Of a stretch of 64,000 bases of DNA, positions 15,311 through 21,424 are shown one piece after another. Under the pieces are notes generated by a model. That model did no database searches, was not told where the DNA came from, and saw only the letters and a program-made list of their open reading frames with translations. A program made the position numbers and the translations under genes. The stretch comes from Candidatus Spongiisociaceae bacterium. Its GTDB lineage: Bacteria > Actinomycetota > Acidimicrobiia > Spongiisociales > Spongiisociaceae. The stretch spans positions 2,240,001-2,304,000 of the forward strand of contig OZ253564.1 of assembly GCA_965262915.1 (NCBI GenBank), given 5' to 3'. The stretch's first letter is position 1. Each line of letters opens with the position of its first letter.

Positions 15311-16594
15311 TCACGGGGCAGGGCCGTCGCGGGGGTGGGTTTGGTAGCCGTCGGGGGTTCGTCGGACTACGAGGTTGCTGGTTTCGAGCCATTTGTGGTG
15401 GCGGCGGCAGGCGGCGACGAGGTTGGCGATGTCGGTGCGTCCTCGGTCGCGATGCCATTCCTCCATGTGGTGGAGTTCGCATCGGTGCATGGGAGCGCAG
15501 CATTCGAAACATCCCCCGTCCCTAACGGTCACCGCCAGGCGTTGGGCGGCGTTCGCCAGGCGCTGCTTGCGGCCTAGCCAAAGGGGACGGCCCATCCGGT
15601 CGAAGACCATCCCCGCCAACTCGGTGTCCGGGCTGAGCGTTTCGAGTATCCGGCGGGGTACGGGGCCGACTCCGACGATCTCGCAGTGCCCGTTGGGGTT
15701 GGTGCCGTCGACCACGCCGTACGGAGCGACGAGGATGACCTGGGTGGAGGCCTTGGCCTTCACGCCAACGGTCTCGCCTATGAACTCGCCGGTGACCGCA
15801 TCGCGGTTGGTGAGCAACTCGAACACCACATCAACGAGACGCTGCTTCGGGGTACGGATTTCATCCGGGTCGCGGTCGTCGGCGCCGTCTCGGCGTAGGT
15901 GACGCATGTAGTGGCTGTCCACGGCTTGGCGGACGTGTTCGAGCTGGGGGCCGGGGAGTTTGGCCATGAGCACTCCGAGCCCTGTGTCCTTCTCCACCCA
16001 GAGTTTGGCTTCTCGGGCCCGCCGCTGACGTTCGAGAGGGTCTACGCCCGCTTCGATCAGCTTCTGGTTGGACCATTTCCGGGTGTGCCGGTCGAAGCTA
16101 TCGGGCAGGAGTTGGTCGGCAGCCTCGATCAGGCTGTCGTCGGCTTCCACAGCTTCGGGACCGACCTTCTCCGCGGCGTTTGCGAGAGCGTTGACGTGAT
16201 CTGCGGTGATTTCACCGGTCGCGAACCGCTCCCTGACTTTGGGCATTTCCGAGAGCTGGCGTGCTACCTTGGCTATCCGCTTGGATTCGCGCCCGGGTAG
16301 CCGCGCTCCCTGCCGCAATACCTCCGCCGGGTCGGTGTCGGAGTCCGAAGCAGACACCTGGCGGGTCACATCGCACATCAGGGACGTGACCACCGATTGC
16401 ATCTGGCCTAACAACCCGAGAGTCCGGTCTGCGTCGGGCCGGGACATCGGACCGATCTCGACTTGGTTCAACTCCCCGAGCGCGGCAGTGATCCGATCGG
16501 CTGGGTCGCTGTGGGAGCCATTCGACGCCTCGAGGGTTGCGCCGCCGACGCCGACGCTGTCTCCGAAGAGAGCGAACACATGTTCGTTGTCCAT
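15311..16594 (-). CDS. DUF222 / HNH endonuclease (13E12-repeat-like family)
   Basis: RTPKQRLVD, GRPLWLGRKQRLANAAQRLAVTVRDGGC..C, CELHHMEEWHRDRGRTDIANLVAACRRHH. Confidence 0.92.
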   Translation of the reverse strand: MDNEHVFALFGDSVGVGGATLEASNGSHSDPADRITAALGELNQVEIGPMSRPDADRTLGLLGQMQSVVTSLMCDVTRQVSASDSDTDPAEVLRQGARLPGRESKRIAKVARQLSEMPKVRERFATGEITADHVNALANAAEKVGPEAVEADDSLIEAADQLLPDSFDRHTRKWSNQKLIEAGVDPLERQRRAREAKLWVEKDTGLGVLMAKLPGPQLEHVRQAVDSHYMRHLRRDGADDRDPDEIRTPKQRLVDVVFELLTNRDAVTGEFIGETVGVKAKASTQVILVAPYGVVDGTNPNGHCEIVGVGPVPRRILETLSPDTELAGMVFDRMGRPLWLGRKQRLANAAQRLAVTVRDGGCFECCAPMHRCELHHMEEWHRDRGRTDIANLVAACRRHHKWLETSNLVVRRTPDGYQTHPRDGPAP

Positions 16595-16630
16595 GATGTA
16601 GTTATACCAAACGCCTGTGACAAATGTCAA
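16573..16630 (-). promoter_or_regulatory. Leaderless promoter of the DUF222/HNH gene with an SOS box and a PafBC-like motif
   Basis: Minus strand: TTGACA-N18-TATAAC-N6-ATG; TGTCACAG-N8-TATAAC is embedded in it; SOS box CGAACACATGTTCG at 16573-16586 lies just inside the ORF. Confidence 0.75.
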
Positions 16631-16692: not shown

Positions 16693-16863
16693 TCAATCGG
16701 TGTTTGTCATGTTCGCGGTGGGATCTGCTGGTTTGAACCGGCCACCGAACCGTCGGGTGCCTTCTCCGCTGCGAGCATCGAAGCCGCGAGCCTGGTTGCG
16801 GTAGGTGCCGGCCCACAGCGACTGGGCCTCGACGCGAGCTACCGAATCGTGGGTCGGAACCAC
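16693..16863 (-). pseudogene. Truncated RES-domain toxin (56 codons)
   Basis: Translates to ...YRNQARGFDARSGEGTRRFGGRFKP, the RES N-terminal SGxGA..GGRFN motif, then stops; directly downstream of the Xre/MbcA antitoxin. Confidence 0.78.
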
Positions 16864-16868
16864 TCATC

Positions 16869-17204
16869 TCAGGCAGTAACGCCCTCACCGACGGCCAGAA
16901 ACAGATCGATCACGCGCTTGTAGTGGCCGGCAGCGACCAGATCGAGGGGCTTCTCGTAACCGAGATCGCGGTTGGGGGAACGCATCCAGAACCGTGCAGC
17001 GTCGTCGCGCATGACGCGGCGGGTAAGGTCGATCACCGCCCGGAGCTCGAGTAGCCGCTCTTCGGCGTGGCGGCGAGGAGCTGTTTCCTGGGAGCGCCAA
17101 CGGGCGACGCTGCGCGGGTTGGTCTCGCTAACCCGCGCCAGGTCGGCGGTGTCGACGACACGTCCTTCGTAGAGGTGATCCAGAAGAGTTGCGAGGGCCC
17201 TCAT
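16869..17204 (-). CDS. Xre/MbcA/ParS family antitoxin
   Basis: HTH (DLARVSETNPRSVARW) plus ARFWMRSPNRDLGYEKPLDLV; RBS AGGAGG. Confidence 0.9.
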   Translation of the reverse strand: MRALATLLDHLYEGRVVDTADLARVSETNPRSVARWRSQETAPRRHAEERLLELRAVIDLTRRVMRDDAARFWMRSPNRDLGYEKPLDLVAAGHYKRVIDLFLAVGEGVTA

Positions 17205-17301
17205 GTGCGATCGTCCTCCTAGGGTGTAGTAGCACGTCGTGTATTTGTCGTCCTATACGTCCCCAACAAGGTAAAGGGGCTCATCGATGCTCCTATGGTT
17301 G

Positions 17302-18531
17302 TCAAATCGATGATGGGGCGGTTTGGTGGGTGTGCAGCCAGTTCTGGTATCGGGTGGCGAGGTGGTGGTTGTGGTCTCGGCCGTGTTCGAGTGCTGAGAT
17401 GCGATTGGGGTGGGTTCCGACGGCTTGGGCGGTCTGGGTGAGGGTGATGCCGCGTTGTTGGCGTCGGGTGCGTAGGCGGGCGCAGTTCGGGGTTGGGTGC
17501 GGGTTGGTGAGGAGCCGGTAGATTTCTCGGGCGATGTGCCGCTTGAGGCAGCGGATGATCTCCTTTTTCTTCTTGCCCTCGGCCTTGCGTCGTGCCACGT
17601 AGGCTTTGGTGGCGGCGTCGGTGCGCATCCGGGTGGTAGCGATCCGCCATAGCGCGTTGTTGGCTTGGCGGTTGCCGCCCCGGTTGAGACGATGCCGAAG
17701 GGTTCGTCCTGATGACGCCTGGACGGGGCTGGCGCCGCACAGCGCCGCGAAAGACCGTTCCGATTTCATTCGCTTGGGGTTGTCGCCGGCGGCGACCAAC
17801 AACGCGGCGGCTGTGTCAGGACCGACACCTTCTGTGGCCAGCAGGGCCGGGTTGGCCTGGGCGCAGAGACGCCGGATCTCGGCTTCGAGTTGGGCGATCT
17901 CTACGTCGAGAGCCTGATACCGGCGGGCCAAATGCTGTAGGGCACGCTTCGCATACGCGGTGGTGGTGTGGTCTGTGCCGGGTCGGAACCGGGCACAGGT
18001 TTTGACCCGTGCTTTGAGATTCATGCCCTTTAGCTGGTGTTTTAGCGGCTCGGGAGCTGTTACGACCAGCGCATGTATCTGGTTAGCGGCCTGGGTGCGG
18101 GCCTTGACCGCGGAGCGGCGCACCACCCACAGCATCCGTATGCACTCGACCGGGCCCACACCGGACTTGGGAACCGCGGTTGCTTCGCCCGAGGCAGCTG
18201 CCCGAGCTGCCGCCTCGGCGTCGACGCTGTCGGTCTTGCCGCCCTTCTGGCGGCGTAGTTGGCGGTTGGGGCGGTTGACCTCCACCACCTCGATGTTCAT
18301 CTCGGTCAGGTAACGGGCCAGGCCGGCGCCGTAACTACCCGTTCCTTCCACCCCAACCCGAACCAACTGTCCCCGCGACTCGAACCAGGTGACCATTCGC
18401 CGATAACCGGATTCCTCCACCGCGAAAGACTCCGATCCCAGTACCCGCCCGACGCCATCCACCACCGCTGCTACGTGGACGTCCCGATGGGTGTCAACCC
18501 CACCGTAGATAATCTGGTCTGCTTCTCCCAT
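17302..18531 (-). CDS. IS110 family DEDD recombinase with a C-terminal XRE-type HTH
   Basis: GVDTH, VGVEGTGSYGAGL, KTDSVDA (DEDD), GVGP, PVQASSG, HRLNRGGNRQANNAL; tail RLRTRRQQRGITLTQTAQAVGTHPNRISALEHG. Confidence 0.97.
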   Translation of the reverse strand: MGEADQIIYGGVDTHRDVHVAAVVDGVGRVLGSESFAVEESGYRRMVTWFESRGQLVRVGVEGTGSYGAGLARYLTEMNIEVVEVNRPNRQLRRQKGGKTDSVDAEAAARAAASGEATAVPKSGVGPVECIRMLWVVRRSAVKARTQAANQIHALVVTAPEPLKHQLKGMNLKARVKTCARFRPGTDHTTTAYAKRALQHLARRYQALDVEIAQLEAEIRRLCAQANPALLATEGVGPDTAAALLVAAGDNPKRMKSERSFAALCGASPVQASSGRTLRHRLNRGGNRQANNALWRIATTRMRTDAATKAYVARRKAEGKKKKEIIRCLKRHIAREIYRLLTNPHPTPNCARLRTRRQQRGITLTQTAQAVGTHPNRISALEHGRDHNHHLATRYQNWLHTHQTAPSSI

Positions 18532-18574
18532 GATGCTCTTCTCCTCTAGGGGATAGAATCATTTCCGATCCCCG

Positions 18575-18748
18575 GACCCGTGTGCGGTTGGACAGGCCAC
18601 TCACGGTGGAGAAGTTGAAGGCTCCTATTAGGTCACATCCGCCCCGGGTCACGGGCGTCACGCCCCAGGCCGGGAACGGGCCGACAGATCGATGAAAAGG
18701 CACAAGGCCAGATTTCAGTTGGGTCAGACCCGCCCTAGCCCAGGAACC
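18575..18748 (-). ncRNA. Predicted IS110 bridge RNA
   Basis: Two stem/internal-loop domains folded by eye; loop segments ACTGAAATC and TCATCG(AT) match the insertion site, and ATAGGAGC and TGAGTG(G) match the IS ends; RNA boundaries approximate. Confidence 0.85.
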
Positions 18749-18767
18749 CTCCAATTATGAGTGGATT

Positions 18768-20071
18768 TCAGTGGGGAGTGACGGTGGCCAATAGGTCCCA
18801 GTTGGGTTTCCCGGCGTAGAGAAGGGCGCGGATTCGGTAGTTCGCGAAGTTGGGTAACCCGAACGCTGCTCGTTTGATCCGTTTGATTAGGTTGTTGAGG
18901 GCTTCGGTGGGTCCGTTGGTTACCTTCGAGATGTGCCAGTTGGTGATCTGGGGGGTCCAGCGGGCGATGGTACGTCCGAGCTTGTTGATCTCGGGTGGGC
19001 AGGATTCGTCCTGGAGGTCGTCTGCGAGCCCGAGGGTGTATCGGAGAGCAAGGACCGGACTTTCGATCCCGTAGATGCCTCGTACCGTTTCGGTTGCGTG
19101 CCAGGCGGTGCGTACCTCGCCGTGGGGGTCACCGGCATCGAGGAGACCACGCAGCCGTGTTTGACCGCGGTCGCTGATCCTCTCATGGGCGGCGGTGAGG
19201 AGGCGGCGTATCCGATACAGCGGGTCATCCTTGCGGCCTCGATGCCCGAGGGTTTCGTTCTGGGTGCGGCGTCGTACTTCGTCGAGTCGCTGGTTGGCCA
19301 AGCGGATGACGTGGAAGGGGTCTGCTACCTGCACAGCGTTCGGCAACACCCTGTCGTACGCCTTCCGATAAGGCCCTGACATGACCCGACACCGCCCAGC
19401 GGATCCCGTCGAGCCACTCGGGGGGCTGTGACCGGAACCACGACACCGCGCTATCAGCCGTTCTACCACCGACTATGTCGAACCGGCTGGTGGCCTCCCA
19501 CATCGACGACAGAAGTGCACCAAACCTTGGTGCGCCACCGGCCTTTCCGCCAGAACAACGCGTCTCGTCGATGCCCACAGCTCCGACCTCGCCTATCCGA
19601 TCGGTGTCGGCCCCCAGGAGTGCATCGCCCCAGCGGACGACCTCATTGTTCACCGTATGCCAATCACAACCCAACTCCGAGGCGACCTCGTCGACCGAAC
19701 GGCCCCGCCCACCCACCCCGACGGTCACCCACCGGGCCGCTCTCGATGTCAACAACGCCCGTTCGGGACCAATCGTGGGGTCTTGTTCGATGAACGATCT
19801 GATCTCACAGTCGGGGTTCGGGCACGTCCAACGGCGTTTCCGCCACCGCAGCCGAACCGGACGGCCGAACGCCGGTAGATCCACCAACACAACCGTTCTG
19901 TGACCCTTGGACCACACCGGGCCACCACACGCCACACACAACGGGCGGGCCTTGCGGGACCCGATCACCACCCCAAGCGGTGCACCCTCGCCCGAGTCGT
20001 TGATCCCTACCAGATCAACGTCGCCCAGGCCTACCAACAACTCGCACATGCGCGCAGGGATCAGCTTCCAC
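18768..20071 (-). pseudogene. ISL3 transposase, multiply frameshifted
   Basis: MCELLVGL, zinc finger C..CG, DLPAFGRPVRLRWRKRRWTC, VGIDET, DMSGPY, ADPFHV, TNGPTEALNNLIKRIKRAAFG; pieces lie in different frames. Confidence 0.93.
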
Positions 20072-20461
20072 AGGGGTCCTCCTGCCTCGGATGTCTTTTC
20101 TCAGCACCCGATTATGGAGGACCCCCCATCACTTCTGGTGGATTACCACTCCCCCTAGCAGATCCCCGACTCCCCACTCATTTCCGAAGAGCCGGTAAAG
20201 GGGGACATGCACGGTTGGGGGCGGAGCGGCCATCTCTAACCTTTTCCCAGTAGCTGGCCGGGCCCACTCAGTAGAATCGGTCCTGACCTCGCGGATGCTT
20301 CGGTAGCGACTGGAATCATGCCGGAACAACCAGTAGCCACGACGGGGCTCTGGCTCGTTCATTGACATAGATCCGAGTGAAGACCAGCCGCCGCCGCCAT
20401 CGCCAATAGACTGACCGGACAATCATGGGAACTTCGGAGGAGCGCGGTGCGTCCAAGTTGT

Positions 20462-21424
20462 ATGAAGAGAACTAACGCACAACCCAACCCGATAAGCCGG
20501 CTTGCCGCGAGCGTTCTCGCCGTGGCCGGTGTAATGGCCCTCGCAGCGTGCTTCGGCGGCAACGACAGCGAAGAGAGAGCGCCGGCGACCACCGCCGCGA
20601 TGGCTGTCGTATCCATGAAGGAGGACGATGCGGGATTCGTCGTCACGGGCGAAGACCGGCTGGAGCAGTATTCGAGCGGCGGGTTCGACATCGGGGTCAT
20701 CGGGCGCGATGTCATCATCGAGATGCGGGTCCTGGTCAGCAGCGACAACATCCAACGTACGGTCGCATCGATCATGGCCAACGTATCGGCGTTAGGTGGT
20801 GGTGTCGCCTACTCGAACATCGACTACGGCGACCGGACCGACGGCCACGACGACGGTTTTGCCATGCTCGTGGTGAAGGTTCCACCTGGAGGCATCGACC
20901 AGTTGCTGGCTGGACTCGACGACACCGGCACCGTGCATTCGATCAGCCAGAGTGCGCAAGATGTCACCGAGCAATTGGTAGATCTCGACGTCAGGATCAG
21001 GAACGTACGGGAAAGTGTCGCAAACGTTCGAGAGTTCATGGATCGCACCGAGAACCTCAAAGATCTCGTGGTTCTGGAGGGAGAATTGACCCGCCGCCAG
21101 ACCGACCTCGAACGACTCGAGGCACAGCAGCGCAATCTCAGCGACCGGGTTGCACTATCGACCGTGACGATCGACATCGTGCCGGCCGCTTCGGTGGGCG
21201 GGGAGGACTCCGACACGATCGGTGATGCCTTCAGTACCGGTTGGGACGTCTTCGTCGCAGTTCTCTACAGGACCGGTTTCGTGCTCGCGGTGCTCGCTCC
21301 GTTCCTTGTCGTCGCAGCGCTGGTGGCACTCCTCGTGAGGTTCGTGGTGCGCCGCCGCAGGGCCACGACCGGAACCGCACCCCCAACACCCCCCGCGGTC
21401 GAACGGACTGAGGAGTCCGGTTAG
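20462..21424 (+). CDS. DUF4349 domain lipoprotein
   Basis: Lipobox LAAC, AQDVTEQLVDLDVRI, LEGELTRRQTDLERLEAQQRNLSDRVALSTVTI, C-terminal TM segment. Confidence 0.9.
   Translation: MKRTNAQPNPISRLAASVLAVAGVMALAACFGGNDSEERAPATTAAMAVVSMKEDDAGFVVTGEDRLEQYSSGGFDIGVIGRDVIIEMRVLVSSDNIQRTVASIMANVSALGGGVAYSNIDYGDRTDGHDDGFAMLVVKVPPGGIDQLLAGLDDTGTVHSISQSAQDVTEQLVDLDVRIRNVRESVANVREFMDRTENLKDLVVLEGELTRRQTDLERLEAQQRNLSDRVALSTVTIDIVPAASVGGEDSDTIGDAFSTGWDVFVAVLYRTGFVLAVLAPFLVVAALVALLVRFVVRRRRATTGTAPPTPPAVERTEESG

Follow-up and report, generated by a model that had tools for sequence, protein, structure and literature searches.

What directs one insertion sequence (IS) to a single base position within another? 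This question is raised by a locus in a 64,000-nucleotide stretch of DNA from a Candidatus Spongiisociaceae bacterium (contig OZ253564.1, positions 2,240,001 to 2,304,000; hereafter the window), in which an IS110-group element lies inside the right terminal inverted repeat (IR-R) of an ISL3-family element. The window is part of a genome of 5.06 Mb assembled in a single contig. Comparison of the copies in this genome and of their relatives indicates that the IS110 element is very probably an active one, which moves by bridge-RNA-guided recombination and whose target loop is set to the IR-R of a multicopy ISL3 family. Coordinates are those of the window unless marked as genome positions, and the published papers cited are drawn on in excerpt throughout.

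An IS110-group element inside an ISL3 repeat

Read on the minus strand, the locus consists of the target site duplication (TSD) of ISL3, its left inverted repeat (IR-L), the ISL3 transposase gene, the inner part of IR-R, the IS110 element, the tip of IR-R and the second copy of the TSD. The ISL3 element (18763..20193, minus strand) has its IR-L at 20169-20193 (minus) and a frameshifted transposase gene represented by the open reading frames (ORFs) 19225-20049 and 18768-19469, in which the Pfam domains Zn_ribbon_ISL3, HTH_Tnp_ISL3 and DDE_Tnp_ISL3 were found. The IS110 element (17286..18762, minus; 1477 bp) starts with ACTCAT and ends with ATAGGAGCATC. It splits IR-R 8 bp from the tip, between ATCC and GATG. 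The inner 17 nt of the repeat (ACTCCCCACTGAAATCC, 18763..18779, minus), which hold the left target, have stayed next to the ISL3 stop codon at 18768, and the displaced 8-nt tip (GATGAGCC, 17278..17285, minus) holds the right target. When the flanks of the IS110 element are joined they read ACTCCCCACTGAAATCCGATGAGCC, the sequence of uninterrupted ISL3 right ends elsewhere in the genome. The 8-bp TSD CCTTTACC occurs at 17270..17277 and again at 20194-20201 and thus brackets the whole composite; in a by-eye comparison of 11 composites such bracketing was exact in nine, 6/8 in one and without match in one. At every such insertion the IS110 element has the same orientation as the ISL3 transposase gene. 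The initial annotation had described the same arrangement, with the insertion just past the ISL3 stop codon, restoration of IR-R upon excision and an ISL3 TSD around the composite, and in all these respects, as well as in its coordinates and sequence strings on the minus strand, it proved correct.

The IS110 element has neither terminal inverted repeats nor a target duplication of its own. Its ends are ACTCAT and GGAGCATC, and its flanks rejoin exactly to the empty-site sequence, no base having been gained or lost on insertion. The left end is long and non-coding (231 nt, 18532-18762), and the right end extends 16 nt past the stop codon (17286-17301). A long left end upstream of the gene combined with a short right end is described for the IS110 group, and the reverse for the IS1111 group (PMC11208160, PMC11187229), so the end lengths fit the IS110 rather than the IS1111 group.

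The recombinase gene (17302..18531, minus) encodes 409 amino acids with a DEDD (RuvC-like) domain (PF01548, DEDD_Tnp_IS110; 1.2e-23, 84.1 bits at a cut-off of 29), a Transposase_20 domain (PF02371; 1.7e-19, 70.4 bits at a cut-off of 21.3) and a C-terminal XRE-type helix-turn-helix (HTH) at residues 351-386 (HTH_31; 3.6e-6). Its best match among solved structures was the IS621 transposase (8wt6; 9.5e-12), with the best stretch spanning residues 158-345. Residues D13, E62, D101, D104 and S274 align with D11, E60, D102, D105 and S241 of IS621, which are named as catalytic in Hiraizumi et al. 2024 (PMC11208158). Judged by these matches, the element is a member of the IS110 family, IS110 group. The C-terminal part (residues 346-409, window 17302-17550), with its XRE-type HTH, has no counterpart in IS621.

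Guide segments that follow target and donor

It was claimed in the initial annotation that the left end of the element encodes a bridge RNA with left and right target guides and left and right donor guides, in the layout of IS621-type RNAs. The four segments are indeed present in bridge-RNA order: CCCAACTGAAATC at 18711-18723, TCATCGAT at 18688-18695, ATAGGAGC at 18621-18628 and TGAGTGG at 18597-18603. The predicted RNA covers approximately IS nucleotides 12-179 (18584..18751, minus), its start being deduced from a junction promoter described below and its 3' end being approximate. The two strands of the target loop, arranged around a GGC/GCC hairpin, come first, followed by the donor guides. 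The target-binding module (18671..18737, minus) comprises a 14-bp outer stem, an internal loop of 13x13 nt and the inner GGC/GCC hairpin. The 5' strand of its loop, CCAACUGAAAUCU (IS nt 41-53; 18710..18722, minus), is identical in nucleotides 4-12, the left target guide, to the top strand ACTGAAATC of the ISL3 IR-R, and its last U could form a wobble pair with the G opposite the final C. The 3' strand is UUUUCAUCGAUCU (IS nt 65-77; 18686..18698, minus), in which UCAUC can pair with the right target GATGA. The donor-binding module (18584..18642, minus) is closed by a stem of GCGG(A)UG(U)GAC with GUCCA(A)CCGC and contains the left donor guide AUAGGAGC (IS nt 135-142; 18621..18628, minus), equal to the IS right end ATAGGAGC(ATC), and the right donor guide UGAGUGG (IS nt 160-166; 18597..18603, minus), in which UGAGU can pair with the IS left end ACTCA. 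In excerpts of Durrant et al. 2024 (PMC11208160) the first loop of the bridge RNA reads the target and the second the donor, and the 3' side of a guide pairs with the top strand over 4-7 nt. Two of the earlier assignments had to be trimmed. Complementarity of TCATCGAT to the right flank holds for 5 nt, the other 3 nt being complementary to the right end of the IS itself (ATC|GATGA), and that of TGAGTGG to the IS left end also holds for 5 nt, the remaining two answering to the target flank (CC|ACTCA).

The structure of the target loop is supported by sequence comparison and not by folding energy. Among 15 sequences (five of 20 loci, L032, L035, L038, L040 and L041, fell outside the scaffold regular expression and were left out of the alignment), 95.2% of the cells of the closing stem were paired, versus 36-52% when the partner strand was slid. 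Compensatory changes were seen in 10 of 21 pairs, and none of 500 shuffles reached the observed values. RNAalifold applied to the left ends independently recovered both this stem and the hairpin. In the closing helix of the donor loop the four pairs counted were 100% paired, three of them invariant; its more distal pairs were read by eye.

If the loop reads the target, elements carrying the same guides should sit in the same sequence. BLAST found nine copies of the element in the genome at 99.1-100% identity (family A) and a further eight at about 81%; the ends are the same in all 17. A regular-expression census gave 17 genome loci with the guide pair of the window element, and when the flanks of these copies were collected, as the initial annotation had proposed, 16 of the 17 turned out to lie at the same base of an ISL3 IR-R. 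Their left flank reads ...C(C/T)ACTGA(A/G)ATCC; the right flank is GATGAGCC in 11 cases and GAAGAGCC in four (tip GA[T/A]GAGCC), and one right end has been lost to a later ISL3 insertion. The one-base difference GAAGA in the right target is thus tolerated, being present in four occupied copies. The genome contains 36 full-length copies of this ISL3 type. The left target is exact at 31 right ends, of which 15 were occupied and 16 empty, the latter reading ...ACTGAAATCCGATGAGCC, whereas only one of 16 right ends with a variant left target was occupied and eight of the 15 empty ones read ..AAACGC (Fisher p = 0.004, a value that is overstated since the ISL3 copies are kin).

A common site could also arise from a single insertion, if ISL3 and IS110 had spread as one composite or the insertion had been copied by gene conversion. 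The bracketing ISL3 TSD would be in keeping with a composite, which does not by itself show the order of events, and two of the occupied ISL3 copies are 97% alike. Several observations speak against such a history. Identity among the nine family A copies is 99.1% or more, whereas that of their ISL3 hosts to the ISL3 copy of the window is only 88-94%, and no pair of occupied hosts is more than 97% alike. In an identical ISL3 clone of 11 copies one is occupied and ten are empty, and two IS110 subfamilies, 81% alike, occupy the same site. Moreover, the homology shared to the right of the insertion amounts to 8 bp only, so gene conversion cannot have spread the insertion. A single event is therefore highly improbable, and, as far as sequence comparison can tell, the insertions at the ISL3 IR-R are independent events.

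The same full element was found at the same base in one other metagenome-assembled genome (MAG), titled Acidimicrobiia bacterium (L011), and junction-spanning remnants with internal deletions occur in three further species genomes of two genera. In L050 (G169), L051 (G087) and L053 (G164), direct fusion of the IS110 left end with the ISL3 tip has left a scar; the L050 junction immediately follows the guide-coding ACTGAAATC, as though this DNA had itself acted as a left target for the deletion. At genome 4175387-4178303 the nesting is reciprocal, an IS110 element in an ISL3 repeat being itself interrupted near its 3' end by an ISL3 of the identical clone.

Natural variation among relatives allowed guides and flanks to be compared across targets. 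About 33 loci in the genome encode related recombinases, and the target-loop scaffold is present at 34 loci, which represent about 11 guide settings. Families of the close clade, designated below by letters, have common ends (ACTCAT...ATAGGAGCATC) and different flanks. Nine left-guide and five right-guide positions were scored against the flanks, with relatives from other genomes added. The guides of eight target classes matched their own flanks at 14, 14, 14, 13, 14, 14, 14 and 13 of 14 positions, and the 56 non-cognate combinations of guide and flank gave a mean of 5.9 and a maximum of 10. As the donor ends are constant within the close clade, donor guides were tested on homologues further removed (about 50% identity). 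The right donor guide, when reverse-complemented, tracks the left end (CCACTCA, CCAGGGA, CAGGGATGA, GACTGTGA), and a comparison of 7-mers showed the left donor guide to equal the right end in nine of 10 loci. Among these nine are the variants TAGAAGC, TAGGGGC and TAGGAAC; the tenth, in a decayed copy, is one base off. Covariation of the guide-like segments with target and donor, on which the initial annotation had staked its reading, is thus seen on both sides.

It could still be argued that the protein chooses the site, for instance by binding of its C-terminal HTH to the ISL3 repeat, and that the left end matches target and donor because it retains remnants of their sequence. The recombinase does carry an HTH that lies beyond the end of the IS621 alignment at residue 345. 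However, sister elements with closely related recombinases (about 70-81% identity) sit in eight unrelated targets with both loop strands changed to match each one, and the guide segments lie within a conserved loop framed by covarying stems, which leaves choice by the protein with very little probability. Taking site fidelity and natural covariation together, we are highly confident that insertion into the ISL3 IR-R is RNA-guided and specified by the target loop.

Core, junctions and the predicted reaction

Where the two guides of a loop end, further complementarity was noted. Every right target guide is followed by a constant GAU, which is complementary not to the target but to ATC, the last three bases of the element; in UUUUCAUCGAUCU this GAU corresponds to the donor core TC plus one handshake base. 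The right donor guide has a 3' extension (GG in family A; GU, GUU or GGUU in others) that complements the end of the left flank in five of seven families. The GG of the window element could pair with the target CC after strand exchange or with the donor TC through a G-T wobble. According to passages of Hiraizumi et al. (PMC11208158), bases 3' of the right guides pair with the non-cognate DNA after exchange of the top strands, the so-called handshake. By its predicted pairing, the extension of the right-hand guides is this handshake arrangement, here reaching into the core. Ahead of the shared C the donor has T, and targets have C, A or T. In all 16 insertions the left junction has retained the base of the target and the right junction the T of the donor, as expected from top-strand exchange 3' of the core. 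A 2026 preprint, as far as the excerpt goes, states that IS621 mainly moves a single strand, and movement of this kind would fit the junction pattern.

A promoter for the RNA can be read across the joined ends. The left end contains the -10 box CATAAT from nucleotide 4 onwards (18754..18759, minus; direct sequence reading), and the right end contains the -35 box TTGACA (17300..17305, minus), which overlaps the stop codon of the recombinase gene and is separated from the tip by 14 nt. Only on the joined, circular form do they make up TTGACA-17 nt-CATAAT, the spacer consisting of 14 nt of the right end and ACT; in the integrated element the -35 position is occupied by GTCACT (3/6, by eye). TTGACA is retained at the same place in all 10 relatives listed. 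A sponge metatranscriptome run yielded a 154-nt contig with an exact 144-nt match to 18580-18723, and from another run of that study came a 152-nt stretch of the ORF, exact but for one difference. These RNA-library data consist of contigs covering small shares (0.04-0.11), the depth of which cannot rank regions, and the first contig is a weak hint that the left end is transcribed.

The element might also be a decayed relic, whose targeting lies in the past and whose RNA or enzyme is now dead. Its hosts are largely decayed ISL3 copies, and relatives contain internally deleted remnants. On the other hand, at nine loci the recombinase is 99-100% identical to the query over 409 amino acids, without internal stop, and the DNA is at least 99.1% identical; one IS110 copy occupies an ISL3 from the clone whose members are at present identical, and pieces of the element are present in RNA libraries. 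With these observations in view, a dead element appears unlikely.

For an active, RNA-guided element the following reaction can be envisaged. The excised element would join its ends, and the junction promoter TTGACA-17-CATAAT thus formed would drive a left-end RNA of about 170 nt, to which the recombinase with its DEDD and Ser residues would bind. The first internal loop would read the target, the UCAUC-G of its 3' strand pairing with the top strand C-GATGA, and the second would read the joined ends, the right one through AUAGGAGC and the left one through UGAGU. Exchange would take place at the single shared C (target CC, donor TC), and the bases 3' of the right-hand guides would pair with the other DNA, GAU with the ATC of the donor and GG with the CC of the target. 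Owing to these cross-complementary bases both new junctions would be fully paired after top-strand exchange.

Several points weigh against this interpretation. Target (CC) and donor (TC) share a single base, C, and not a dinucleotide core as in IS621. The register of the left guide is not constant either: it meets the shared C at base 12 in families C, D3, E1 and E6 and in L017, and at base 13 (U-G or C-G) in A/B, D2 and E3. Folding of the single sequence gave a minimum free energy (MFE) structure with z = -1.64, 10 of 200 shuffles folding at least as well; in this structure UGAAA of the left guide is paired with UUUCA beside the right guide, and the donor region is drawn into pairing with the ribosome-binding site. 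In the donor loop, support is confined to the closing stem. No bridge-RNA match was obtained when 16800-20600 was scanned with the 4227 models of Rfam 15. Of the earlier proposal that the left end folds into guide-bearing loops, the target stem was upheld by comparison, and neither the single fold nor an Rfam bridge-RNA model added support. The RNA-library contigs are without strand and without defined ends, and carry-over of DNA is possible. One guide-pair locus (genome 3665109) is at a site that matches the guides poorly. Finally, the RNA, the circle and the recombination are predicted here from the sequence.

Some candidate structures were rejected. The pairings of the single-sequence MFE fold, the z-score of which is not informative, were set aside for the comparative structure, and those proposed by RNAalifold for the donor region were not adopted, the guides being buried in them. 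The sole Rfam hit, radC inside the ORF, was at chance level (E = 0.34; score 21.5 bits, gathering score 40). The stray copy (genome 3663632-3665109, L003) has the site AAAGAACCCC|ACCGCCGTCA, which is similar to the target of family C; the RNA of another family may have guided its insertion, the donor ends being shared, or the copy may be a product of recombination.

Possible consequences for ISL3 and for other mobile elements

Insertion moves the 8-bp tip of ISL3 1.5 kb away from the rest of the repeat, and because of this displacement we lean towards the view that it disables the right end and immobilises the ISL3 copy. An intact ISL3 ORF (at least 420 amino acids) was found in three of 13 occupied copies versus 15 of 23 empty ones, and the identical clone of 11 copies includes ten empty members and one occupied. 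This pattern fits loss of mobility after the hit. It fits equally a situation in which older copies have had more time both for decay and for hits, and age alone could produce it. The initial annotation had seen here an RNA-guided IS that parasitises and immobilises ISL3. Its targeting part is carried by the 16 of 17 loci and the covariation; for the immobilisation the evidence is this correlation, which tells against treating it as established.

In one ISL3 subfamily, in which IR-R reads ..CACTGAAACGC|GATGAGCC (..AAACGC), all eight right ends are empty (genome 480775, 1721703, 1603289, 179705 and 3228657 and three partial copies). The copy at genome 1147202 has a body 98% identical to this subfamily, ends in ..ATCC and is occupied. 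The changed repeat may represent an escape from the guide.

The clade with common donor ends is split into at least eight target settings, seven of them in this genome, and six of these seven concern other mobile elements: one lies in the right repeat of ISL3 type 1, three lie at the ends of a second type of ISL3, one at the left border of an IS21 element and one in the 3' coding region of another IS110-family gene. In the second ISL3 type, E1, E2, E4 and E5 are 14 bp inside both repeats, D3 and D4 are 36 bp inside the left end, and E6 is at the transposase stop codon. Insertions into this type were located at genome 541943-546193 (L007, L043), 2007815-2009343 (L006) and 4996111-4997572 (L009, L046), and one copy carries an insertion in both of its terminal repeats. 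D2 and D5 lie just upstream of the istA/istB pair of IS21 (D2 at genome 642019-643543, right flank in L044), and family C lies towards the 3' end of the coding sequence of another IS110-family transposase gene (genome 713843-715372, left flank in L045). Having common donor ends, the RNAs of one lineage could mobilise the circles of another.

A second IS110 lineage, G (406 amino acids, CT core), splits the bridge-RNA genes of E4, E5, D1 and L012, the last in another MAG. Its insertions are at genome 3638544-3640027 (L048:245-1728), 4420452-4421935 and 287302-288785 and at L012:2080-2400, and it sits inside the donor-guide DNA (ATAGGAGCC) of these genes. The left end of lineage G contains AGGCUCCU and UGAUAG, which match its own insertion site, and is set against ATAGGAGC, both donor guide and right end of the first clade. 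To judge from these matches, lineage G is in effect an IS110 element aimed at the bridge-RNA gene of another. Relatives of lineage G (about 85% identity) were found in arrays of CTGACAC/CTGGCAC heptamer repeats (genome 739259, 372872, 1359848, 2093380, 1852068, 721285, 1873959 and 291608), where their right guide (GUGCCAG, GUGUCAG, GUGCUAG) varies in step with the flank, and one relative is in the right end of element D1. Tentatively, and with slightly less than even confidence, we suggest that the genome holds a guild of IS110 elements living nearly exclusively on other ISs and on each other by re-set guide loops.

The composite in the window is adjoined by an Xre/MbcA/ParS-type antitoxin-like gene (PF09722; 16869-17204, minus) and by a gene for a DUF222 protein of 439 amino acids (15311-16630, minus).

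How does the element compare with known systems? IS621 takes a REP element as its natural target, whereas the target here is the end of another IS. Integration of the IS110-family element IS1383 into the inverted repeats of IS1384 in Pseudomonas putida H was reportedly described by Muller, Lauf and Herrmann in 2001; like our element, and going by the title of that paper, IS1383 has the terminal inverted repeat of another IS as its specific target. IS4321 and IS5075 of the IS1111 group are said by Partridge and Hall (2003) to insert into the 38-bp repeats of Tn21-family transposons. They resemble our element in site- and orientation-specific insertion into the terminal repeat of a mobile element, and differ in having the RNA downstream of the gene, long subterminal repeats and Tn3-family transposons as targets. 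IS1384 is listed as a member of the IS5 family (in a table of PMC5141477), so IS1383 differs in that its host is not ISL3; it is also proteobacterial, and the paper predates bridge RNAs. In view of these precedents, of which the initial annotation had itself cited the one concerning Tn21, the suggestion that the target class had gone undescribed had to be dropped. ISL3 as a target of IS110 elements, or the present lineage, was not found in the literature, although the thousands of RNA-target pairs in the supplementary tables of Durrant 2024 were outside the search and might include either. What is new here is ISL3 as the host element; the mechanism and IS ends as a target class are already known.

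Excerpts on E. coli IS621 (PMC11208160, PMC11208158) describe several features in common with our element: a DEDD + Ser recombinase, with all five catalytic residues aligned; an RNA in the long left end, upstream of the gene; a target loop followed by a donor loop, each with a 5' strand identical to the top strand and a 3' strand complementary to it; handshake bases; and a promoter split across the joined ends. The differences are also clear. The proteins match distantly (9.5e-12), ours having 409 amino acids and the added HTH. The target loop of 13x13 nt, with a left guide of 9-10 nt and a right guide of 5-6 nt, is unlike that of IS621, and our element has target NC and donor TC with only the C in common, where IS621 has a CT core. 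For ISEc21 and ISMch6, parts of Siddiquee et al. 2024 (PMC11187229) describe seekRNAs of close relatives with changed target-matching segments in matching new sites; those are single pairs of relatives, whereas here at least eight target classes belong to one clade, seven of them in one genome.

The locus offers a complete natural set from a high-G+C actinobacterial lineage, comprising recombinase, guide RNA, donor junction and both occupied and empty targets. The naturally reprogrammed relatives, along with the single shared base, the sliding left guide and the handshake reaching into the core, would allow a test of how far the IS621 rules extend. The known mechanism is left unchanged, and the most interesting side of the finding is the density of IS-on-IS targeting in one genome. 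Guide-directed insertion into IS ends is no oddity of a few proteobacterial elements, and can be the main lifestyle of a whole IS110 clade in some genomes. If insertion disables the ends of ISL3, IS110 elements would act as natural brakes on another transposon family. If, furthermore, the IS110 elements form a guild as suggested above, they would be engaged in a natural arms race among selfish elements with programmable guides, and the spread of ISL3 would possibly be restrained, to the benefit of the host.

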